Shown piece by piece: positions 5,952 through 48,982 of a stretch of DNA of 64,000 nt (positions within the stretch are counted from its first letter, which is position 1; each line of letters begins with the position of its first letter). The stretch covers positions 608,001-672,000 of the forward strand of contig CM000155.2 of NCBI GenBank assembly GCA_000004695.1, read 5' to 3'. The stretch comes from Dictyostelium discoideum (taxonomy: Eukaryota). The notes beneath the pieces are model-generated. The model saw only the letters and a list, made by a program, of their open reading frames with translations, was not told the DNA's origin and did no database searches. The position numbers and the translations under genes were made by a program.

Positions 5952-8504
<2,553 letters not shown>

Positions 8505-9176
8505 TATATATATATATATATATTTATTATTATTTTTTTGGATGTGATTTTATTTATTTGTGTGAATATTAAAAATTTGGAATTAATACAATGGAAAAAA
8601 AAAAAAAAATTTTAAACAAAATAAATATTTAAAAAAATGAGAAAAGGTATAATTTAATTAATATTAAAATAAATAATAAAAAAAAAAAAAAAAGGATTAT
8701 TATAATGAGAAAAATTTGTATAAATTATTAAATTATTATTATAAATGGGGTTCACTTTTTTGGTTAATTTTTAATTTTTAATTTTTAATTTTAATTATTT
8801 TTAATTTTGGTTTTAATTTTTTTTTTTAATTTTTTTTAATTTTTTTTAATTTTTTTTATTTTTATTTTTATTTTTATTTTTATTTTTATTTTTATTTTTA
8901 TTTTTATTTTTATTTTTTTTATTCAACTAATTAATTTAATTTAATTTAATTTAGTTTTTTTTTTTTTTTTTTTTTGTTTTATTTTTTTTTTTTTTTTTTT
9001 ATTAGGAAATGATTTAACAATTTAAAAGGAACATGTAATGCAAATAAAAAATAAAAACTAAAATATTTACCCTATTCATATATGAATTGATTCAACTCGT
9101 TAACCCATTACACTATTTTGTGGATTTTTTATTTATTCGAGTTAAAAAAAAATTCTTAAAAAAAAATTTTTTTAAG

Positions 9177-9211
<35 letters not shown>

Positions 9212-9277
9212 TTAATTTTGTTTTTTTTTTTTTATTGCTTACGTAATAAACACAAAAAAAATACATACTATCCTTTT

Positions 9278-9308
<31 letters not shown>

Positions 9309-9353
9309 CTTTTGTTAAACCTTAATTTATATATTAAAGATTGTTTTTTTAGA

Positions 9354-10095
9354 ATGGCTGATGATGGTGAATTGGTATGCAAAAATTACTCTCACAATTC
9401 TTTATTTTAAACCCTTTTTTTTCCAACAAATATTTTTTTATAAACTATTAACTTTCAACTTTTTTTAAACAAACAAATAAATAAACAAATAAATATAAAT
9501 ATAAATAAACAAATAAAATTTATAATAAAATTTAAAATAAATATAAATATATATAGCCATTTAGTTATGTAGAAGAGAATACACCAGATGGATTAGAATG
9601 TGTAATTTGTTATTGCCCATTAATTGATCCAGTTGAACATATAACACAAAATTCAACATGTAATTCATCATTTTGTAAACAATGTGTTTGCACATTGAAA
9701 TCTTGTCCCATTTGCAGATTAGAAGTTTCAAATTGGACAAGGGTACAACTTACACCTTCAACACTTCGTTTTATATTTAGACCACTATCAGATATTAAAG
9801 TAACATGTAATGTTTGTAAAAAAGAAACAACAAGAAAAGAAATTAAATCTCATGTTGAATCTTGTGGTATTAGTATGTATTATTCAATTATTTTTTTTTG
9901 TTAATTTATTAAATATTTAATATTAATAATTATATTATATCATATGACACAGAGTTACCAGAAGGACTATACCCAGAATTAGAAGTAAATAAACAACCAC
10001 AACTTCAACAACAACAACAACAACAATCATCAAATACTCTTTCAAACTTTTTTGGAGGAATTTCTGAAAAATTAAAATTCAAAACAAATGATCAA

Positions 10096-10162
<67 letters not shown>

Positions 10163-11497
10163 GAAGTCCAATAGATGATAGAAGGAATACTCCATTACCA
10201 CCACCACAACAACAACCAATTACACCAAACCAACAACAACAACCACAAATACAACAGCATCAACAAATACAGCCACCTCAACAACAGCAACCAATATATA
10301 ACCCTTATCCACCATATCCATATTATCAAACNNNNNNNNNNNNNNNNNNNNNNNNNNNNNNNNNNNNNNNNNNNNNNNNNNNNNNNNNNNNNNNNNNNNN
10401 NNNNNNNNNNNNNNNNNNNNNNNNNNNNNNNTTATCAACCTCCACCAAATCCATATTATTATAAACATCCACCACCAGCACCACATTATGTTCCACCTAA
10501 TCCTTATTATCAAATTCCACAACCCCCACCAGCACCACAACCACCACAACCACCACAACCACCCCAACCACCACAAGCACCTCTACCACCTCAACCACCT
10601 CAACCACCCCAAGCACCTCAACTACCTCAACAACTAATTCCATCACAAAAACAAGAGCATCAAAATATAAGTAGAACGTCAGCTTCAGTAATAGCAGAGG
10701 CAACAGCTGCCTCATCAAATAATCAAAAATTAAACTATCAACCACCACCACCAAGTTATTATCAACATCAACAACAACAACCAAATAATTATCAGCAACA
10801 ACAACAACAACAACAACAATCATCACCATTACCACCACCAAATTATTATTTAAATCCATTATCACAAACTCCAATTGATCCACAAATGGCAAGTACATCA
10901 GCAAATTTAATTGATAGAGAGTTAGAGAATGAACAATTTTATCCACCAATTCAAAGTTTCTCAGCCAATATTTTAGCAAATGGACAAACATTAAGCAATG
11001 TTAATTTTAATAATCAAACCTTGAAGAACATTACCTTTTTAAATAGTACAATATCGGCAAGTCGTTATCAACATACAAGATTCGAAGGTTGTATCTTTCA
11101 AGAATGTAACATCAATAGCAGTTCCTTTATCGAATCTGCATTCATTGATTGTATATTTATGAATTGTAATATCAATGGTTGCGATTTCTCAAAATCAACC
11201 CAAGAGAACTGTTATCATGTCAATAGTGATATCTCCAATTGTAATTTCTTTCAATCCTCTGGTAACAATGTCAAATATGTCGCTGTCACTATGTTAAATA
11301 ATAATTTCGCTCATAGTATTCCTCGTAGTACATTCTGTAGATGCAACCTAACAAATGCTCAATTCTCAAATTGTAATCTCTCAAAAACAAGATTTAAAAT
11401 CTCACAACTCAATTATGCTAATTTTGTCTCTGCTTATTTCGACCTTCCATTAGACCATATCTTTGATCAAAGATCTGAAAGAAAACTTTGTAAATTT

Positions 11498-11503
<6 letters not shown>
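9354..11503 (+). CDS. RING finger plus TRAF-type zinc finger protein with a Pro/Tyr/Gln-rich linker and a C-terminal pentapeptide-repeat-like domain, 3 exons.
   Basis: Exons: 9354-9374 (MADDGEL, donor gtatgc), 9557-9866 (ECVICYCPLIDPVEH...CPICR RING; VTCNVCKKETTRKEIKSHVESC), and 9952-11503. The frame breaks at an extra A at 10140 inside (AAT)n, and there is an N gap at 10332-10431. The C-terminus has CNL.NA.FSNCNLSKTRF-type repeats. Confidence 0.6.
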
Positions 11504-11532
<29 letters not shown>

Positions 11533-11860
11533 ATCTTTTTTTTTTCCTTTTCCTTTTCCAAAAAAAAAAAAAAAAAAAAAAACCTTTTTTCCTTTTTCCA
11601 AAAAAAAAAAAAAATTAAAATAAAAAAAAAAAGAAATAAACTTTGCAGGGTCCAGAAAAATAAAAATATATGTTTTGTTTCTTTTTTCCTATATCTTGTT
11701 TTTTGTTTTTTTTTTTATTTTTTTTTAATCCTAATAAAATTAATTGGTCATAGTATATGAAAAATTTTTATTCCTATTATGAAGGATCCAACGTTGTAAT
11801 ATAACATATTTTGGTTTATTTATTAAGTTTTTTGTGTTTTTGTTTAAAAATTTATCTGTT

Positions 11861-11890
<30 letters not shown>

Positions 11891-11896
<6 letters not shown>

Positions 11897-12662
11897 GTCA
11901 ACCTTATGTTCACCTGGGCCACCCTCTAATAATGTATCTTGTTGTGAGATTAGTCTTAGTACTGTCTTTTTACTTGTTTCTTGTAATTCACCAGCCATAA
12001 TTAATTCATCTAAAATATAATATGCCTTGTGAAAATTAAAAATTAGATCTAATTCACAAACCTAAATTGAATTAATGTAAATTTTATTATTATCATTATT
12101 ATTATTATTATTATTATTATTGAATATTTGAGTATTTGAGTATTTGTGGTGTGTATATATTTATACGTAAAAGTTAGTAATCTATAATATAAAAAAGGTA
12201 AAGATAGATAGAGAGAGAATAAAATTATAATTATAAAAATTTACATTTCCAAAGTATCTATCTAAAATTTCTACAAAATGATGAATAATTTCTAAAACGA
12301 TAAGTTCATTATCTTCTCTATCACAACAAACTACAAAATATAAACTTGCATATCTTTTGAAAATGATTTTATATTCTTTCCATTCTAAAAAATTACATAA
12401 TTTGGGTGGTCTATTTAGAACCATATTACCAATTTCTCTTGTAAATCTTGATTTTTCTTTATTTGTGAATGGTGAATACCATTTTGTTAATCTTGTTTTA
12501 CCTTGTCTAGATAATAATAATAAAAAGTGAAATGTCTAAAGAAAAAAAAAAAAAAAATAATAAAAAAATAATAAAATATATACATATATTAATATTTTTA
12601 TTTATTTTGATTATTTTGAATGTGGAGTATATATATATATCAAATATTTTATCCATTACCAT
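11891..12662 (-). CDS. ap1s1: AP-1 complex sigma subunit (clathrin adaptor small chain).
   Basis: Exons on the minus strand: 12535-12245 ([20 protein letters not shown]...[20 protein letters not shown]...[17 protein letters not shown], donor gtaaat) and 12061-11891 ([35 protein letters not shown]...*). It is a near match to AP-1 sigma1. The first exon (ATG at 12662-12660 followed by gtaatg) is tentative. Confidence 0.8.
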
Positions 12663-12774
12663 TCTTTAAAAATATTTTGGGTGTATAATATTAATATATT
12701 ATATATACAAACTATGGGAAAATAAAAAAAAAAAAAAAAAATGAAAAATTAAAAAATAAAAAACTAAAAAATTG

Positions 12775-12806
<32 letters not shown>

Positions 12807-12918
12807 AATTGACCACCTAACAACCACAACATATTTTCATTTTTTTTATTTTTATTTTAATTTTTTATTTTTAATTTTTATCTTTATATTTCTGATTTGA
12901 TTTATATTATTAATAAAA

Positions 12919-13509
12919 ATGTTGGTGAATAATATTTTTCAAGATTTATAAAATGTAGTAGATTATTAATTTTTTGCTTTTAAAAATAGGTCCAAAGTCA
13001 CTTTTAAAATCACTTTAACATCAGATCCAAAATTACCATTTAGAGTGTAAATTATTATTATCATTATTATTAATAATATTATTAATATTAATATTAATAT
13101 ACTAATCTTTTTTTTTTTTTTAGAATTAATGTTACAGAAGATACACCATTTACAGCAGTTTTAAGATTTGCATGTGAACAAGTAAGAATAAAGAATTTTT
13201 TAAGATTTTCTTTTTTTTTTTTTTTTCAAGGTTATACTAATTTTTTATTACTATCATATAGTTTAATGTCCCATGGCAAACATCAGCAATTATTACAAAT
13301 GATGGTATTGGAATTAACCCAGCACAAACAAGTGGTAATATATTCCTTAAAAATGGTTCAGATTTAAGAGTAAATATAAACTTCACCCTTTTTATTTATA
13401 TTTTTTTTTTATATTAATAATAACTAATTTTTATTTTATCTTTATTATTATTTTTTTTTTTAAAAAAAAAAAAAAGTTAATTCCAAGAGATAGAGTTGGT
13501 GGTTTATAA
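12919..13509 (+). CDS. ufm1: Ubiquitin-fold modifier 1 (UFM1).
   Basis: Exons: 12990-13046 ([19 protein letters not shown]), 13124-13181 ([19 protein letters not shown]), 13262-13369 ([36 protein letters not shown]) and 13477-13509 ([10 protein letters not shown]). The start codon is apparently split (AT at 12919-12920, then an intron, then G at 12990). This is tentative. Confidence 0.8.
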
Positions 13510-28557: not shown

Positions 28558-33010
<4,453 letters not shown>

Positions 33011-33378: not shown

Positions 33379-35436
33379 ATGTTTTCTAGATTGTTAAATA
33401 GAGGAAACGGTGGTGTAAATAAAAATATAACATCAGGACTATTATTAAGGAGAACAACAACAACAACAACAAGATTATCATATATTAATAATAGTCCTAC
33501 CTTATCAATTAGATCATTTTGTTCAAAATCAACAACAATAACATCAGATGAAAAGTTAGATTTATCAGGTTATACAACAGATAGAATTAGAAATTTTTCA
33601 ATTATAGCGCATATTGATCATGGTAAAACAACATTAAGTACAAAGTTATTATCATTGACAGGTACATTACCAAAGAGTATATATGGTAGTGGTGAAGATA
33701 GTTTGGTTCAAAAAGAAAAGAGTGAAGAAAGAAGAGAACAATATCTTGATAAATTACAAGTCGAAAAAGAGAGAGGTATAACAGTGAAGGCTCAAACATG
33801 TACAATGAAATATCGTAATAAAGAAGATGGCAAAGATTATCTATTGAATCTTATCGATACACCAGGTCATGTTGATTTTTCCTATGAAGTTAGTAGAAGT
33901 TTAATGGCATGTCAAGGCGCGCTATTGGTGGTTGATGCAGTTCAAGGCGTGCAAGCTCAAACAATGGCAAACTATTATTTAGCCTTGGATTCAGGGTTAG
34001 AAGTTATTCCAGTTATAAATAAAATAGATTTACCAACTGCCGATGTAGAAAGAGTGAAACAAGAATTGAAAGATGCTTTTGGATTTCATCCAGATGATGC
34101 AGTGTTGGTATCGGCTAAAACTGGTGTTGGTATCACTGATATCCTTCCAGCGGTAATCGATCGTATCCCACCACCTCAAGAACCAACTAAATCACCCAAA
34201 GTACCCTTCAAAGCATTGTTATTCGATTCATGGTTCGATAGATTCAGAGGAGTGATTTGTTTAATTAAAGTTGTGGATGGTAAAGTGAAAAAGGGTGATT
34301 CGATAGTATCAGCTGGTAATAAACAAACCTATGAAGTATTCGATGTTGGTATTATGCATCCTGAACAAAGACCAGCTCCTTCACTATTCACAGGTCAAGT
34401 AGGTTATATAACACCAGGTATGAAAACTAGTAAAGAGGCAAGAGTTGGTGATACTTTCTACATGAAAGACTTCCCTGTGGAACCATTACCAGGTTTTCAA
34501 CCTGCCAAACAAATGGTGTTTGCTGGTATTTATCCAGTGGATTCTTTGGATTACACTCAGTTGAGAGAATCATTTGAAAAGTTAATGTTAACCGACTCGA
34601 GTATATCAATGACCAATGAAACTTCAGTTGCATTGGGTATGGGTTTTAGATGTGGTTTCCTTGGCTTACTTCATATGGATGTGGTTTTACAACGTCTAGA
34701 GCAAGAGTATGGTCAAGTGGTTATTGCAACACCACCAACCGTACCATATAGATGTTTATTAACCGATGGTAAGGAGATATTGATTTCAAACCCTGCTGGG
34801 TACCCTTCTGCTGAACATTTATCAAAAACTTTTGAACCAATGGTAACTGGTCATGTTACATTACCAACTGAATATTTTGGTGCTGTCGTTAAACTTTGTA
34901 TGGATAGTAGAGGTATTTTAACCAATCAAGAAACATTGGAAGGTAATCGTACCAGAATCACATTCAATTTCCCTTTGGGTGAAATCGTTACCGATTTCTA
35001 TGACAATCTCAAAAGAATTAGCTCAGGTTATGCTTCTTTGGATTATGAAGACAATGGTTATCAAGAATCTGATGTTGCAAAAGTTAGAGTACTATTAAAT
35101 GGTGAGGAAGTCGATTCCCTATCAGCAATCGTACATAAATCAAATGCTCAAAGATATTCTCGTTCTTTGGTTAAACGTTTAAGAAAAGTTATCGATCGTC
35201 AAATGTTTCAAGTTAATATTCAAGCTATGGTCGGTAGTGATGTTCAAGCTCGTGAAACTATCTCTGCCATGAGAAAAGATGTAACTGCAAAATGTTATGG
35301 TGGTGATATTACTCGTCGTAGAAAGTTATTGGATAAACAAAAAGAAGGTAAAAAGAGAATGAAACAAATGGGTTGTGTTGAACTTAGTCAAGAAGGTTTC
35401 CTTAAACTTATGAAATCAACAAATGATGATGATTAA
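33379..35436 (+). CDS. guf1: Translation factor GUF1 (LepA/EF4 homologue), mitochondrial, single exon, 685 aa.
   Basis: N-terminal presequence. G-domain NFSIIAHIDHGKTTL...DTPGHVDF...NKIDL. C-terminal LepA_C-type tail ...AKCYGGDITRRRKLLDKQKEGKKRMKQMG. Confidence 0.9.
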   Translation: MFSRLLNRGNGGVNKNITSGLLLRRTTTTTTRLSYINNSPTLSIRSFCSKSTTITSDEKLDLSGYTTDRIRNFSIIAHIDHGKTTLSTKLLSLTGTLPKSIYGSGEDSLVQKEKSEERREQYLDKLQVEKERGITVKAQTCTMKYRNKEDGKDYLLNLIDTPGHVDFSYEVSRSLMACQGALLVVDAVQGVQAQTMANYYLALDSGLEVIPVINKIDLPTADVERVKQELKDAFGFHPDDAVLVSAKTGVGITDILPAVIDRIPPPQEPTKSPKVPFKALLFDSWFDRFRGVICLIKVVDGKVKKGDSIVSAGNKQTYEVFDVGIMHPEQRPAPSLFTGQVGYITPGMKTSKEARVGDTFYMKDFPVEPLPGFQPAKQMVFAGIYPVDSLDYTQLRESFEKLMLTDSSISMTNETSVALGMGFRCGFLGLLHMDVVLQRLEQEYGQVVIATPPTVPYRCLLTDGKEILISNPAGYPSAEHLSKTFEPMVTGHVTLPTEYFGAVVKLCMDSRGILTNQETLEGNRTRITFNFPLGEIVTDFYDNLKRISSGYASLDYEDNGYQESDVAKVRVLLNGEEVDSLSAIVHKSNAQRYSRSLVKRLRKVIDRQMFQVNIQAMVGSDVQARETISAMRKDVTAKCYGGDITRRRKLLDKQKEGKKRMKQMGCVELSQEGFLKLMKSTNDDD

Positions 35437-40951: not shown

Positions 40952-43900
40952 TTAAACATTAGAAAGTTTTAAACTAAACCAAATAAAAGAATCAAGAGAT
41001 AATCTAAAAATTTGTTGTTTAATTGAATCAGTTCTTTCATAATAAGCTAAAAGGTAATCACCATGAAGTGTTATATTTAAAGCGGCGATTGATGAAGGTG
41101 GAATATCACCAGTACAAACGAATTGATTCCATTCAAAAGTTTCTAAATTTAGGATATGAATTTGATTGAGTAATCTTGCTTTATTGAACCAACCACCAAT
41201 AACAATCAAAGAATTATTCCAAAGTATACTACTATGACCAACCATTGGTAATGGTGGAATACCTTTACATTCGATTTCAACCCAACCATTTTTATTTGTA
41301 GTTGGAACTGTGAATTTAAATCTATGGAAAGAATCTTCAATTGAAGAGATAACAAAAGTTAATGTATCATTGAAAACTGTAACCGATGGACCATCAGGGA
41401 AATCGATTTTATTTTTCAATTCTTTCTTCAAGAGGAATGGTAAATTAATTTCCTTTGGAGCATTCTCACCAATGAATACTTGATAAATCTTTTTAGATTG
41501 GATTTTAATGATTTCACGATCGTCAGGTGTTTGATTTGGTAAAGATTTGAAAGTTTTAATAGCTTCATAAAACATTAAATTCTCTTCATTGAATTCTGAT
41601 TGCATGTGAGTATAAAATGCTTTATAGGTGGTTGACTGTTTATTATTCAATACAACCATTAATTTATCCTCGAATAGCATGCTTGAAAGATTTAATGCAA
41701 ACACTTTTGAATGTGGTTTCGATGAATTATTCCAACCACCGAAATGGATGATTTTATCTTGATAAATGATTGAACCACCAGATGGTAATGGATGGTCAGA
41801 GTAAATGTTATTATCCGACGCTAAACTCTTATAACTATGTTCCTTTGATTCAATCTCTTTCTTTATCGTATAGAGTTGTGATATTATTTTAGATGGTGAT
41901 GGACGATTCAATGGTTCACCTGACCAACAATCTTTAATTAAATCTGCAAATGATGGTAAACAATCTAATGGAATCGATGGACGTTGACCACTAATAACAA
42001 TATTTGAGAATCTATCATGATCTTGGAATGCTATTGATCTAGTTAACAATTCATATAAAATAATACCAAATGAATAGACATCACTATTTTCATGATAATT
42101 TAATTTTTGTAATACTTCTGGTGAATGATATGATTTTGGTGTTGTACTAGTTGGAAATAGTGACGGTAAAAATGATGATTGTGAAAAATCTATAATTTTT
42201 GCATTTACAAATGGTTCAATTTCAAGACCATTGCCACTTGACTGATGGTCATTTGATTTCTCTAAAATTATACCAGAACTTGTTAAATTTGTTAATAGGA
42301 AAGGTGGAGAATGTGAATTTAATTTATCCATTGCACGAGCTATATCCAATGCAATCTTTAATTTAATATTCCATGGAATTTCAGGATGCTTTTGTCTGTC
42401 TTGAATATACTCTGATAGGGTTGTGCTACCTTTACTACCGAATGTCGGATTCTCTGTTATGATTGCGATTGGGTTCATTGAAATACCAATTATCGATAAA
42501 ACATTTGAATGACGGAAATTATATAATGACAATGCTTCATGTCTAAAACTTGATAGAATACGAGCACAATTATTTTGGAAATCTGCGCCCAACAATGGAG
42601 CATTGAATACTTTAATATTTACAAACTGTTTACCATACATTCCCATCATTGATTGTGTTGATGTACCATTTTCATTTTGATTAGAATGATCTGGTAAAAC
42701 TTCAATCTCTCTATAATCAATTTCTTTAATAAAATGACAAATTGAAAATTGATCTAATAATAGTGATCGAATTGGTACCAAAAATGAATCATCTCTATAA
42801 ATTTCAACTTTTCTTTCTTTTTCTTTTTCTTTATCTTTATCTTTTTCTTTTTCTTTTTCTTTTTCTTTATTTTGTTTTGCTAATTCTTTCAAATCTTTTT
42901 TAGATAAACTATTATTATTATCATTATTATTTGATTGAATTAGGTTTTTAGAATCTTTTCTTGAAATCTTTGGATTTGATCTAGATGAAGCAATTGGTGA
43001 ACTTGTATCATTTGAACTATTATTGTTATTTGGTTTATATTGACAATAAATACCTAATTCACCTTTAAATATTTGTGCTTCACATTCTTCCAATTTAAAT
43101 AAATGAGGTGTAACGATTTTCTTTTCAATACAATGACTACATGGTATAAAAGTTTTAAATGATACTTTATACCATTTTGAAACTAAAGATTCGAAAATAC
43201 TATAAACTTGACTTGATAAGGTTGATGGTCTAATAAATCTTATTGTAATTTCAATTGTATTACTATCATGATCAACATTTACTAAAATACGTTCTTCACG
43301 GAATTGTTGTTGTAATGTGTTGTTGGAAGATCCTGATGCTAATGATTGGAGAGTTGTTGCTGATGTTGTTGTTGTTGAGTTTGCTGTTGATGATGATGAT
43401 GATGATGATGTTGTTGACATTGATGCTATCTCTGGTACTAAAATTGCTAAATCCTTCCAACATTTATAAAGATGAGCATGTTGCATTAGTCTACTTAATA
43501 ATCTACCAAATAAACCATTTGGAATTACATCTAATGAGAATCTTCTTGAAAATTGATGAATTTCAGGTGACTCTGGAAAAGCTTCCCAAATACCTGGTAA
43601 ATCAATGATTGGTATCATTGATGAAATATTATTCAAATTTAATGCATTACTTAATGAAGATGATGAAGATGATGAATTTGAACTAATTGAACAATTACCA
43701 TTGATTGATAGTTGTGGTGGTGGTGCTAATAATGATGAAACCAATGCCCAACCAACACGAGCATTAAATGAACTTGAACGACCATTTCTAACTTTTTGAT
43801 TTGATGTAAAACTTGATAAACTACTTGTATTATTTAAATTAACACCAAAATAAGAATTACTGCGATTTGCTTCATGAATACTCATTGATCTTGATCCTGA

Positions 43901-46900
43901 TCTACCACGACCTACATTATTGCCATTGCTATTATTATTATTATTATTATTAACTTCTAATGAATAAATATTAATTGCTAAATCATTACTTTCTAATAAT
44001 GATAAAAATAATGAAAAGAATCTTTCAGGTACATAATATTTTGAATTTGTACCCCAAACATAACGTAAAACTCTATGTGGTAAAATACCAGTGATTGTTG
44101 AATCATGTGATGCATCATTTGCTTCTTCAGCACTAACACTAACATTGAATGGTAAATTTTGAGGATTAAAACAAACCAATGAAGCTATTGCCTTTGCTAT
44201 CCAAATTGGATTCAAAGCAATCATTTCAGTTTTTTGAGGTGTTGAACCTGGTTCCATACGAATGAATTGTTCAAACAATGCAATTGAACCCAATGAATTG
44301 AATAACGATTTCAATTGAGTGAAATGTGGTTCATTATGTAACTCCATTGTACGTGCCATTTGTTGTAGTGTCTTTTTGGTAACCAATGGTGGTGACATTA
44401 AATTTGATTCCTCTTTAAGATAATCCTCTAAAAACATAAAGGAGGCAGGATAGGTTTGTTTTAGTATTGGATTCTTTGCAATCATTTGTTTAATATCTCT
44501 TCTAAGTTTTCTAATTCCATCAGCATCTGATTTCAATGTTGAAACTGCATGAAAAACCAAATTAAGTGTTGGAAATAATTGTTTATATTTTAAAGATAAA
44601 CAATCGAATACTTTATCAACTTGTTTCTTACTATTGGATGAAATCTCATCCAAATGAGTACCAATGATAATGATTGTTGCTTTTTTATCATAATTATTAA
44701 TACCATGTAAATAAGATGTTATCTTTTGTTCATTTGATTTACTTGAACCAAATTTAGATAAATTGAAACAAACTGTATAAATTATATTTGGTACAAAGAA
44801 AACATGACTAATATCATTTTGCATACCTTCAAATTCCCAAAGATGAATTGTAATAGTTTTCTTTTTCTTACCATCTGGACCATCAACATTAATTGGACAT
44901 TGCCAATCTTGAATATCTAAAATATTTGTTTTACTATTACCTGAATTATTTGAATTATTACTGTTTAAATTATTTAATGATGGTAAATTACTTGAAGAAG
45001 ATGAAAAACTTGATTTTGGTAATTTTTTTAAACATTTTATTAAATTTGATTTACCAGTTGATTTATCACCCAACATAATGATTCTAGTACGATAACAAGG
45101 TACGTTGGTTCTCATGGTTTCAGAAAAGAATGAGAAAATACCTTCTTTACCTTTTTGAATATATTTCTCTGGTATATTATCTTTTAATGGTTTATTACCA
45201 GTTAATTCTAATGAATTTAATTTCTTTAAAGCTACAATACCAGGTGGTAAACGTGAGATATTATTATTTGTTAATCTAAGTTCAATGAGTGATTGCATTC
45301 TATGAATTGCAGAACTAATCGATTGTAATTGATTATTATCTAAATAAAGTTTCTTTAAATTTGTTAATAATAAAAGTTGGGGTGGTAATGACTGGATTTG
45401 GTTTCCATTTAAATTGAGTTCAGTCAATGATGTTAATTTTTGGATATCAGAAGTTAAATGAGAAATTTGATTATCTGCCAATGTCAATACTTGTAATTCC
45501 ACTAAATTAATTATACCCTCTGGTATGGAGGTTAAATGATTCTTTCTTAAATCCAGTGACCTTAATTTAGTGGATGTGCATATCTTTGGAATACCATTAT
45601 CGTCCAAATCGTTATTACTAACACGTAACACCTCCAATGTCGGGATTTGAAAGATATCAATTGGTAATTTAGTGAGATAGTTATTTGAAATATTTAAAGT
45701 TTTCAATTTTAACCAAGTATACAATGGTGGTAATACCACCAATCTATTACTACTCAATGTCACATTCTCAAGATTACTTAATCTCGTTCCCAAGAAATCT
45801 GCCATCTCTGATGAAATCTCGGTTAAATTATTCTCTTCTATACAAATGGTTCTCAATGATGTTAATCTTGCAAGATCACCTGGTAATAATTTAAATTTAT
45901 TTCTATTCAAATTTAATTCTTGTAAATCTTTAAGTTGTTTAATTTCGTTTGGTAAACTTTCCAACTCTAATGAAAACATATCCAACTTTTGTGGTATAAT
46001 TCTATTCAATTGTGATATTGATTTAGTTACTGAATTTATATATGCATATATTAATTTACATGTTGAAGGTGACTGAAATGAAAATGTTATAACTGTTTTA
46101 GTATCACTACTACAATAAACTGTAAAATTAGGTAATACTTTTAATGATGATGATAGTGATGTTGACGATATTGATGGTGTTGATGATGACGATGATGATG
46201 CTGATGACGAATTTGATATTGATGATGATGACGATGATGATGATGATTGTGGTGGTGTATATAATACAATTTTTAAAATACTGCTAAATAAAATAGCTAA
46301 ATCAGGTTCACCATGATCAATATTAACCTTTGGTCTCCAAACAATTTGTTTATGAAATAACCATAAATTACCAACTGATGATTGATGTTGACTCTTTTGT
46401 GTTGATGTTAATACCTCTTCAATATAAAGAATTTGAGCATCATCTGTATTCATACGTTCTTCAGGTGATTGGAATAAAATATCAGCTTGTTGAATAAACA
46501 TTGTTACAATATCTTTAATTGTCTTTAAATGTGATTCACTAATCTCTTTACTTTGAGCAATTGTTCCAATAGTTGGTCTTAATATAAATTTATGAAATCT
46601 TTCAACTAATAATTCCAATGTAACATCATTAAAATTTGTATATACCATAATATCTTTTAAATATTTCATTAATCTACATAAAATTGATTTATTTGGATTA
46701 TTCATTTTCCTAATCATTAAATGTAATAAAGTTTCTATAAAAAAATAAAAATAAATTTATTAATATATTATTAATATTATTATTATTAAATTGTTTAATA
46801 TATTGATGATATATTAATATTTACCAGTTTGATAATAATTTAAAAGAGTTTCATAAAATTCAACACTTATAATTGGTTCAGGTAAACGATTAAAAAATTC

Positions 46901-47984
46901 AATTAAAATTTCTGAAACAACATGAACATTACATTTTTTAAGTGATACTTCAATACCTTGATCATATTGATTACAAATATTTTCAACTTCTAATTTAATT
47001 GATTTTTGTGATAAATATTGATGTGGTGATGTATTTGTATTTGTTGTTGTTGTAGTAGTAGGCTGTGGTTGTTGTTGTTGTTGTAGTTGATTTATAATAT
47101 TTGGTGATGAATTACCAGATGAACCAGATGAAGAAGATGATGATAATGATGATGATAAATTTGGAGATGTTGGTACACTAATTGTTGGTATGGTTGTATT
47201 TGCAGCAGTTGAGATTGGACTAATACTTGAGGCTAAATTACTAGTACTTGTATTATAATCACCATAAAACAATCTATTTGTTGATAATGCACTACTTGAT
47301 TCTAAGATTGTAAAGATTGAATTTAAAATTGAGGGTATTTGATTACCACTTTCGTTTGGGTAACGTAATATTACACGTAATGGTATACCGAATATACCTT
47401 CGAATGGTACAACTTGAACACTGTTTAAAGAGTTTGGTGATGTGTGACCACTAATTGTACCACTACCACTTGATATAGAGGAGGAGGTTGATTGCTGGTA
47501 TGGTGATGATGGTGTTTTATATTGTTCTTTACTTTGACTAACTAATTTACTCATTCTCTCTTTTGAAAGACTCATTTTACCTAAAAATTGCATAACTTTT
47601 TCACCGGCACCTGCTTGTTTAACACCTGATGATGACGATGATACACCTGTTGAATTCATTAATGGTGACCTATTTTGACTGCTAACTGCAGATGCTGATG
47701 TTTTCTTATTATGATTACCTCTTGGATAACCCATAGTTGGTGATGATGATAATGGCATTTGTGAATCAGAGTTTAGTCCTGTTAAATGTGGTGGTTGTGG
47801 TGATGTTGATTGAATAATTGGCGATGTAACACCACTTGATTGATTACTACTGCTACCATGAGTATTACTATTATTATTATTATTACCACCATTATCAATA
47901 CCACTACCTGACATTGATAATGAACCACTGGTACCATTTGAAGGTGAATGATTACCATTCATTGGATGTTGTGGTTGTTTATTG

Positions 47985-48015
<31 letters not shown>

Positions 48016-48982
48016 AACCTGCTACTGAATTATGAAAATTACCATGGGTTGAATGTTTATTTAGTGCTGGCATTGTTGGTGAACTTAAATAATTATTATT
48101 ATTATTATTGTTGTTGTTGTTGTTACCATTACGTTGTTGTTGTTGTAATTGTGATAAAATATTTAAAGTTTGAGTTGAAGCTGTACCAGATGGTGAAGTA
48201 CTATTATAGATACCACTACCACTATTGTTTAAAGAGATTGAAGGTGAAACATCACCAGCAGCACTTGTACTACTAATTTTAATTGGTGATAATGGTGGTT
48301 TATTACCACCAGAATTCCTTTTACCATTATTATTTCTAGAGAGTGTTGGTGATGGTGATATAAATAATGGTACCTCTGGTAATGATGAAATTAAATCTTT
48401 TTTTTGCGCTTTAATATTTTCTTTCTCTTCTGTTGTTAATGGTAATTCTTCATTAATTAATGTTGCAAAGGTTTCATTATCTTTATCTTTATCTTGTTTG
48501 TTGTTATTATTAGTTTGTAAATTTGGTGGTGTTGATGTTGGTGATGTTGGTACTGGCGGAATTGGTATATTGCTTGCCAATAATAATGATTTCAATTGTT
48601 GTGCATTAAATGTATTACCACCTGATAATCTAGTACCACTTGGTGATGTTATATATGTTGGTGAGGCTGATATTGTTGGTGATGATGTAGTAGTTGTTGC
48701 AACTGGTGACATTGCAGTTGTAGTTGTTGTTGTTGTTGTTGTTGTTATAATTGTTGGTGGAGGTGGTGATGATGATGTATTTATTGTTTGTGTTGGTAGT
48801 GGTGGTGGTGGTGATAATGTATCATTCTCTAATAAATTTTGTTGTGGTGAGCTTGGTGGAATTGATTTATTATCATCTGCACCATTTACACTATAATTTA
48901 ATGATGCACTACCAATTGATGATGTTATAATAGAATCTGGTGAAACTTGAATGATTTCATCATCATCCAATAAACCTGACAT
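40952..48982 (-). CDS. Roco-family protein with the domain order RhoGAP, LRR, Roc GTPase, COR, kinase-like, RGS, kelch. 2 exons, 2646 aa.
   Basis: Exon 1 is 48982-46825, ending ...CNVHVVSEILIEFFNRLPEPIISVEFYETLLNYYQT (RhoGAP). The intron is 46824-46735 (gtaaat...tatag). Exon 2 is 46734-40952: LRRs (LPNEIKQLKDLQELNLNRNKFKLLP...), Roc (IIMLGDKSTGKSNLIK, HLWEFEGMQ, IIIGTHLD), kinase-like domain, RGS (FYTHMQSEFNEENLMFYEAIKTF...IYQVFIGENAPKEINL) and kelch repeats at the C-terminus. Total CDS length is 7941 nt and is in frame. Confidence 0.8.

Follow-up and report, generated by a model that had tools for sequence, protein, structure and literature searches.

A 64-kb stretch of Dictyostelium discoideum DNA (contig CM000155.2, positions 608,001 to 672,000; hereafter the window) contains, on its minus strand, the gene roco10, whose product is a large Roco protein with a kinase-like domain. 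The explanation that best accounts for our findings, and that we hold to be highly probable, is that roco10 is a pseudokinase Roco in which the kinase-like domain is conserved as a structural module, within a putative scaffold whose output would be an RGS domain. A first-pass annotation, made from the letters of the window, had read the gene as encoding a Roco protein and likely pseudokinase, and this core reading is supported by the domain matches and by the lost catalytic residues described below. The spliced product is identical over all 2646 residues to XP_630003.1 / EAL61591.1 of D. discoideum AX4 (exact look-up) and is the same protein as UniProt Q6XHA6 (UniRef100_Q6XHA6; DDB0201665), "Probable inactive serine/threonine-protein kinase roco10"; the gene is the nuclear roco10 of D. 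discoideum, already catalogued.

Goldberg et al. 2006 (PMC1420674) list the roco10 motifs as VNIK / LTNLTSSG / DFS in their Table S2 and describe roco10 as inactive, without G52, D166 and N171, and as the only inert Dictyostelium ROCO kinase. Given this publication and the UniProt name, the pseudokinase finding is correct yet already known, and its discovery value is small, since the 2006 Dictyostelium kinome paper and the UniProt name already give the gene, the set of domains and the predicted inactivity. What is new here is that the dead loop is deeply conserved, that the C-lobe is held constant where the N-lobe drifts, that the Heterostelium album gene model is split, that DFS alone is not diagnostic, and that the RGS contact residues and the Roc P-loop and G4 motifs are conserved. 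The loss of the RhoGAP arginine finger by lineage and the placement of the RGS domain within a kelch region are further, small additions.

Catalytic motifs of the kinase-like domain

The Pfam family PK_Tyr_Ser-Thr matches roco10 at residues 2113-2340 (3e-24), covering profile positions 45-258 only. When the domain was compared with the PDB by phmmer, the Roco4 kinase came first (E = 2e-23), in an alignment that pairs PPIVHRDLRSPNIF with PPFLLTNLTSSGII and (A)DFG with (I)DFS. We also aligned 21 sequences with MAFFT, namely roco10, its two orthologues and the 18 most similar single-domain matches of an exhaustive HMMER search. At the catalytic-loop column all 18 relatives carry HR[D/N]LKxxN (with Asp in 17), where roco10 has LTNLTSSG. 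The first-pass annotation had placed the loop at ~42262-42303, and LLTNLTSSGIIL is indeed found at 42298..42263. Because the Roco4 structure-sequence alignment and the MAFFT alignment agree on register, mis-registration of the motifs was rejected, and the substitutions Asp to Asn, Lys/Arg to Thr, Asn to Gly and Gly to Ser are real. The VAIK Lys and the helix-C Glu, which had been described as retained, align in both comparisons. A point absent from that annotation is that the GxGxxG loop is missing: the column in which relatives read GEGG, GKGG or GSGS is NGTSTQSMMGM in roco10.

Among the residues expected of a competent kinase, roco10 therefore lacks the catalytic-loop Asp (D166 of PKA), the Asn (N171) and the Gly-rich loop (G52), and keeps the VAIK Lys (K72), the helix-C Glu (E91) and the DFG Asp (D184). 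A kinase fold recognised by sequence match, from which the essential catalytic residues D166, N171 and G52 are gone, corresponds to a pseudokinase. An AlphaFold2 (AF2) model of the C-terminal 618 residues, built from a three-sequence alignment, gives the domain a kinase-like secondary structure with low confidence (mean predicted local distance difference test (pLDDT) score 58, predicted template-modelling score (pTM) 0.42); we used the secondary structure of this model only.

The DFS motif, in contrast, does not serve as evidence of inactivity, as had been proposed. Four of the 18 relatives also read DFS with an intact HRD, and the change of Gly to Ser is therefore not a sign of an inactive kinase. 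The top PDB match is the structure of the Roco4 G1179S mutant (4F1M), which ranks first because its sequence reads DFS. We take the roco10 DFS to be the equivalent of the activating LRRK2 G2019S substitution and of Roco4 G1179S, and the replacement of its catalytic Asp by Asn is presumably the equivalent of the kinase-dead LRRK2 D1994N. The prediction that the domain still binds ATP is not established: the retained Lys and helix-C Glu speak for it, and the absence of the Gly-rich loop and the Gly at the position of the metal-binding Asn speak against it.

Orthologues and the age of the loss

Word-indexed protein searches with the kinase-RGS-kelch region, run with the single sequence and then with a three-sequence profile, returned the H. 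album orthologue only, and the exhaustive HMMER search added only a protein of Clastostelium recurvatum. Further matches (among P0003-P0010) were rejected as orthologues, being multi-kinase-domain proteins with an intact HRD. The annotated model of the H. album PN500 orthologue (P0002, 1056 residues) is truncated. On GL290985.1 (reversed 581186-604632; L001:6266-13447) the gene is annotated as two, 6266..9888 (1036 residues), which is the N-terminal part, and 10001..13447 (1056 residues), and an open frame at 9194..13447 crosses the annotated gene boundary. Open reading frames and alignment show that H. album roco10 is one gene, complete in the order RhoGAP-LRR-Roc-COR-kinase-RGS-kelch. Its protein begins MSSLLEEDDEIIV, that of D. 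discoideum MSGLLDDDEIIQV. An H. album intron (L001 ~7881-7960) lies at the same codon phase, YYQT/E/TLLHLM, as the intron at 46735-46824 of D. discoideum roco10, which is the only one there; the H. album gene has several extra introns upstream. C. recurvatum is a protosteloid amoeba of the Protosporangiida, far more distant than H. album, and its orthologue (P0006, 2339 residues, from a transcript) has the same architecture by Pfam (RhoGAP-LRR-COR-kinase-RGS-kelch).

In the three-way alignment the catalytic loop is PPFLLTNLTSSGIIL in D. discoideum, PPFLITNLSSSNIIL in H. album and PPYLYQALSMDTVLV in Clastostelium, with the cores LTNLTSSG, ITNLSSSN and YQALSMDT. In the same order of species, DFG is replaced by DFS, DLS and CFG, and VAIK by VNIK, VNIK and VLVR, so that Clastostelium has Arg at the VAIK Lys and Cys at the DFG Asp. 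The helix-C Glu is retained in all three species and the catalytic base is gone from all three. This comparison with orthologues, which the first-pass annotation had proposed as a check on its own reading, comes out in favour of that reading, as neither orthologue has canonical motifs. Since the catalytic base is missing throughout, its loss appears to be ancestral to the orthologue group and not a sequencing error; to judge from these sequences the loss is ancient, being common to a group-2 dictyostelid and a protosteloid amoeba. We note that a Gly-rich-loop-like GAGSGE is kept at residues ~1715-1730 of the Clastostelium protein, although the VAIK Lys, HRD and DFG Asp are lost there; dictyostelid roco10 has the reverse pattern, with the loop lost and the Lys and Asp kept.

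Conservation is uneven across the domain. The D. discoideum C-lobe is 74% identical to that of H. album and 37% identical to that of Clastostelium, values that equal or exceed those of Roc (56/27), COR-B (57/32), RGS (57/29) and kelch (59/30), whereas the N-lobe, at 53% and 14%, is the least conserved folded part. This contrast fits a structural or docking role for which the C-lobe has been retained, and lends no support to a conserved ATP site; ATP binding seems unlikely for the Clastostelium protein.

Of the alternatives to a pseudokinase, the one that fares best is that roco10 is a non-canonical active kinase, which would use Lys2094, Glu2119 and Asp2235 with another base or another arrangement of metal. 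Atypical active kinases exist (WNK, CASK and haspin-type exceptions), the VAIK Lys, helix-C Glu and DFG Asp are kept in D. discoideum and H. album, and the highly conserved C-lobe includes SPE and DVYSFG on the substrate side. We nevertheless consider this very improbable, as the Asp, the Lys and, in D. discoideum, the Asn of the catalytic loop have been lost jointly with the Gly-rich loop, and as the substitution found at the catalytic position, Asp to Asn, is the standard one for making a kinase dead, as in LRRK2 D1994N. Moreover, the Arg and Cys with which Clastostelium replaces the Lys and the DFG Asp leave the orthologue group without a catalytic set that all its members keep. A little less credible still is the notion that the region is a decaying, functionless remnant in a protein that works through its other domains only: the lost catalytic residues and the poorly conserved N-lobe (14% to Clastostelium) would agree with decay, but a C-lobe at least as conserved as Roc, COR-B, RGS and kelch would not, nor would the maintenance of full length and an open reading frame across three distant lineages. 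That the degenerate motifs are an artefact of sequencing, assembly or gene modelling can be set aside almost entirely, as no supporting point was found, the frame is open throughout, the protein agrees with the curated reference residue for residue and the degenerate loop recurs in an independent H. album genome and an independent Clastostelium transcriptome.

The remaining domains of roco10 and its surroundings

The gene has two exons, 48982..46825 and 46734..40952, with the stop within the second; minus-strand open reading frames at 46814..48982 and 40952..46717 are joined by splicing at 46825/46734. The intron (46824..46735, 90 nt, GT..AG, AT-rich) begins with GTAAAT, ends with TTTTATAG and, in phase 1, splits the codon of Glu720 in the RhoGAP domain. 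The spliced coding sequence of 7941 nt gives 2646 residues plus a stop, the length reported in the first-pass annotation. Pfam places a RhoGAP-like domain, LRR, Roc, COR and a kinase-like domain in that order, followed by a short kelch region that has an RGS domain set into it (Table 1); together with the LRRK2 Roc-COR match this confirms the domain list given earlier. No Pfam match was found in the N-terminal ~525 residues.

Table 1. Position of roco10, its domains and its motifs within the window, with the basis for each.
Feature	Residues	Position	Strand	Basis
roco10 gene		40952..48982	-	open reading frames and splicing; identity to Q6XHA6; intron position shared with H. album
N-terminal low-complexity region, S/T/N/Q/P-rich	~525 N-terminal	47408..48982	-	translation; identity 33% to H. 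album and 27% to Clastostelium, many gaps
RhoGAP-like domain, intron-split	~526-800	46493..47407	-	Pfam RhoGAP; PDB match to OCRL1
Arginine-finger position NRLFY	569-573	47264..47278	-	Tyr573 at the canonical catalytic Arg
Leucine-rich repeats	~976-1240	45173..45967	-	Pfam LRR_8 (1e-24), LRR_14, LRR_4 (~1040-1200)
Roc GTPase	~1262-1470	44483..45109	-	Pfam Roc (1315-1415); phmmer to LRRK2 Roc-COR
Roc P-loop GDKSTGKS		45047..45070	-	LRRK2 alignment
Roc G3 WEFEG	1352-1356	44825..44839	-	aligned to LRRK2 WDFAG
Roc G4 GTHLD		44648..44662	-	identical in LRRK2
COR (COR-A 1482-1644, low-complexity linker, COR-B to 1954)	1482-1954	43031..44449	-	Pfam
Predicted pseudokinase domain	~2055-2341	41870..42730	-	Pfam; Roco4 alignment; 21-sequence alignment; Goldberg 2006 Table S2
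VNIK		42611..42622	-	aligns with VAIK; VNIKVF at 42622..42605
Helix-C FRHEAL		42530..42547	-	aligns with FRRE
Catalytic loop LTNLTSSG		42272..42295	-	aligns with HRDLKSPN
DFS		42182..42190	-	aligns with DFG; IIDFS at 42196..42182
SPE		42116..42124	-	aligns with APE
First kelch-like blade, before RGS	~2370-2412	41657..41785	-	weak Pfam Kelch_3 (2384-2408); AF2 strands
RGS, R4 type	2418-2525	41318..41641	-	Pfam RGS (1.8e-11, 44.9 bits, cut-off 23.9)
C-terminal kelch repeats, ~2 blades and 1 strand	2531-2643	40964..41302	-	Pfam; AF2

The features that mark the Roco family are present, with a P-loop and a THxD G4 motif, COR directly after Roc, LRR before it and a TKL-type kinase domain after it. 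The Pfam Roc score (25.1 bits) falls just below the 27-bit cut-off because a low-complexity insert after the P-loop helix splits the domain; the Roc-COR segment matches human LRRK2 Roc-COR by phmmer (E = 8e-11) in an alignment that extends from Roc into COR-A and pairs VPCYRTRIIMLGDKSTGKS with VPYNRMKLMIVGNTGSGKT, LWEFEGM with VWDFAGR and GTHLD with GTHLD. The P-loop and G4 are kept in D. discoideum, H. album and Clastostelium. At G3, Glu replaces the Asp of DxxG in D. discoideum and H. album, Clastostelium reads WECRSPAG, and roco10 has Met at the position of LRRK2 Arg1398. COR-B is well matched (residues 1863-1954, 6e-10, 39.5 bits against a cut-off of 27); COR-A scores 24.4 bits, under its cut-off of 35.3, yet lies at the expected place. 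Identity between D. discoideum and H. album is 75% in COR-A and 78% in the LRR region. Like Roc past its P-loop helix, the COR linker and COR-B are interrupted by low-complexity inserts. Residues ~801-975 (45968-46492), which separate the RhoGAP and LRR regions, are conserved, for example GNLWLFHKQIVWRPKVN ... LPNFTVYCSSDTKTVITFSFQSPSTCKLIYAYINSV, with 60% identity to H. album; Pfam has no match in this segment, which may be a PH/GRAM-like module.

The RhoGAP-like domain matches Pfam RhoGAP at residues 663-772 (1.7e-11, 44.6 bits against a cut-off of 24.5), over profile positions 28-145 only. The first quarter of the domain falls outside this match on account of a 75-residue S/T/Q-rich insert (residues 581-655, 47018..47242) right behind the finger loop, an insert absent in H. 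album. In the PDB the domain is closest to the RhoGAP-like domain of OCRL1 (E = 7e-9 for the D. discoideum domain and 2e-9 for that of H. album), and p190 and p50RhoGAP also match. With H. album as the query, phmmer aligns SLSTANLFREPENT to ALTTEGIFRRSANT of p50RhoGAP, such that the Arg of H. album ANLFR matches the IFR finger of p50RhoGAP (Arg85, GxFR) and can be identified as the finger. The finger region of D. discoideum is ALSTNRLFYGDYNT, with TNRLFYGDY at 47281..47255; at the finger itself D. discoideum has Tyr, H. album has Arg and Clastostelium has Gly. D. discoideum roco10 has an Arg three residues upstream of Tyr573. The RhoGAP fold is present in D. discoideum and the arginine finger of a catalytic RhoGAP is not, in keeping with the earlier remark that this region looks atypical. 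The accompanying proposal that the domain turns off Rho-family GTPases becomes doubtful for D. discoideum, as OCRL1, its nearest solved relative, itself has Gln at this position. Loss of the finger appears to be lineage-specific, a small addition to the annotation.

The RGS domain is R4-like. Its PDB matches are RGS18 (5e-9), RGS2, RGS8, RGS1 and RGS4, with E values from 5e-9 to 1e-6, and the SEFNEEN and APKEINL of roco10 pair with the SEFSEEN and APKEVNL of RGS18 and RGS2. The predicted G-alpha contacts of R4 domains, the Glu-Asn of SExxEEN and the Asn of KEVNL (N128 of RGS4), are present, and SEFNEEN and APKEINL, as well as EDSFHRF, are conserved in both orthologues. Among the accessory modules (RhoGAP-like, kinase-like and RGS), RGS alone has an intact-looking active surface. 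The kelch repeats are matched by Pfam Kelch_KLHDC2_KLHL20_DRC7 (6.6e-18, 65.3 bits against a cut-off of 50), Kelch_6 and Kelch_1; at the place of the weak match before RGS, H. album has stronger Kelch_4 and Kelch_6 matches. One kelch-like blade precedes RGS and ~2 come after it in all three species. The AF2 model, with low confidence, gives ~12 beta strands, equivalent to ~3 blades, nine of them in the C-terminal block (pLDDT mostly 57-87), and residues 2370-2412 and 2531-2646 provide sequence space for only ~3 blades, compared with the usual six-bladed propeller. RGS is inserted in a short and probably incomplete kelch unit.

The window is strongly AT-rich, with a GC content of 10-18% in intergenic and 25-34% in coding DNA, and contains no tRNA genes over its 64 kb. 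Neighbouring open reading frames matched by Pfam encode a RUN and Rubicon-homology-domain protein (28893-32732, plus strand), a LepA/GUF1-type translation GTPase (33379-35436, plus), a DDHD-domain, phospholipase-like protein (5952-8504, minus) and a pentapeptide-repeat protein (10175-11503, plus). Several further open reading frames of 360-630 codons have no Pfam match. None of the Pfam-annotated neighbours, all of them ordinary genes, has an evident connection with roco10.

A scaffold model and its relation to known systems

The kinase-like domain has kept its fold; having lost the catalytic base, both the Lys and the Asn of the catalytic loop and the Gly-rich loop, it would carry out no canonical phosphorylation. 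The ancient loss and the strongly conserved C-lobe suggest that the domain has most likely been kept for a structural and conformational role beside Roc-COR. We infer that roco10 acts as a scaffold regulated by Roc-GTP, in which RGS would be the likeliest remaining catalytic output, as a predicted GTPase-activating protein for G-alpha subunits, and in which the D. discoideum RhoGAP-like domain may bind Rac/Rho-family GTPases rather than inactivate them. Such a scaffold would make roco10 a component of chemoattractant and cytoskeleton signalling. Growing cells of two independent roco10 insertion mutants are less motile (PMC8386026), a phenotype that is compatible with a role in signalling through G proteins and the cytoskeleton and that does not itself probe the mechanism. 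The main text of a cytoskeleton study by stable isotope labelling with amino acids in cell culture (SILAC) names Roco7 and Roco9 and not roco10.

Several points weigh against the reading of roco10 as a pseudokinase scaffold. It is based on two orthologues only, the libraries searched having yielded none from D. purpureum, Cavenderia or other dictyostelids (which does not imply absence from their genomes), and our literature search found no biochemical test of kinase, nucleotide-binding, RGS or RhoGAP activity. Some kinases that lack canonical residues are still active, and the dictyostelid proteins have not lost the Lys, the helix-C Glu or the DFG Asp, such that ATP binding or a non-canonical reaction is possible. 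The scaffold and its putative RGS output, moreover, are drawn from conservation only.

We also entertain a more elaborate proposal, which as a whole we regard as unlikely. Here roco10 would be an ancient Roco lineage that predates the split between Dictyostelia and Protosporangiida, two of its three enzymatic accessory modules would have been converted to a binding role (the kinase in every species, the RhoGAP in some), the Roc GTPase cycle would gate RGS through the conformation of the pseudokinase, and the three-blade kelch half-propeller into which RGS is spliced would become six-bladed only in a COR-mediated dimer. If true, it would make roco10 a natural experiment that separates the scaffolding from the catalytic role of an LRRK2-type kinase domain. 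For the LRRK2 field, the predicted pseudokinase roco10 is of some interest as a naturally kinase-dead Roco with presumed equivalents of both D1994N and G2019S. That it is kinase-dead, that its dead C-lobe is conserved across very distant amoebozoan lineages and that null mutants have a motility phenotype together make it a tractable system for the non-phosphorylating roles of a Roco kinase domain.

The closest known systems are Roco4 (PDB 4F0F, 4F1M) and human LRRK2/LRRK1, which have the LRR-Roc-COR-kinase core in common with roco10. The roco10 kinase domain is nearest to Roco4 and its Roc-COR matches LRRK2, down to an identical G4. Roco4 and LRRK2, however, are active kinases with HRD/YRD, the Asn and the Gly-rich loop intact, and roco10 lacks all three. 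It also differs from them in its G3 motif (ExxG versus DxxG), in a C-terminus made of RGS and ~3 kelch blades in place of a WD40 propeller, and in the extra RhoGAP-like domain at its N-terminal side. A precedent for that domain is the RhoGAP-like domain of OCRL1/INPP5B (PDB 2QV2, 3QIS), which, like D. discoideum roco10, has no finger Arg, and which in OCRL1 binds Rac/Cdc42 without GAP activity; OCRL1, however, combines a 5-phosphatase with an ASH domain outside any Roco context, and H. album roco10 still has the finger Arg. For the kinase-like domain the corresponding precedent is MLKL (PDB 4M67, 6VBZ; match 1e-14), which likewise combines a TKL-group kinase fold with a degenerate catalytic loop, and whose pseudokinase domain still binds ATP; MLKL is a small two-domain executioner protein and is not orthologous to roco10. 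The R4-type RGS proteins (RGS18, RGS2, RGS8 and RGS4) have the SEFxEEN and KE(I/V)NL contact motifs in common with roco10, and RckA, a Dictyostelium protein with RGS and TKL kinase domains (PMC1420674; PMC6397043), resembles roco10 in pairing the two. Unlike that of RckA or of the R4 proteins, however, the RGS domain of roco10 sits inside a kelch region, behind a kinase that is predicted to be dead.

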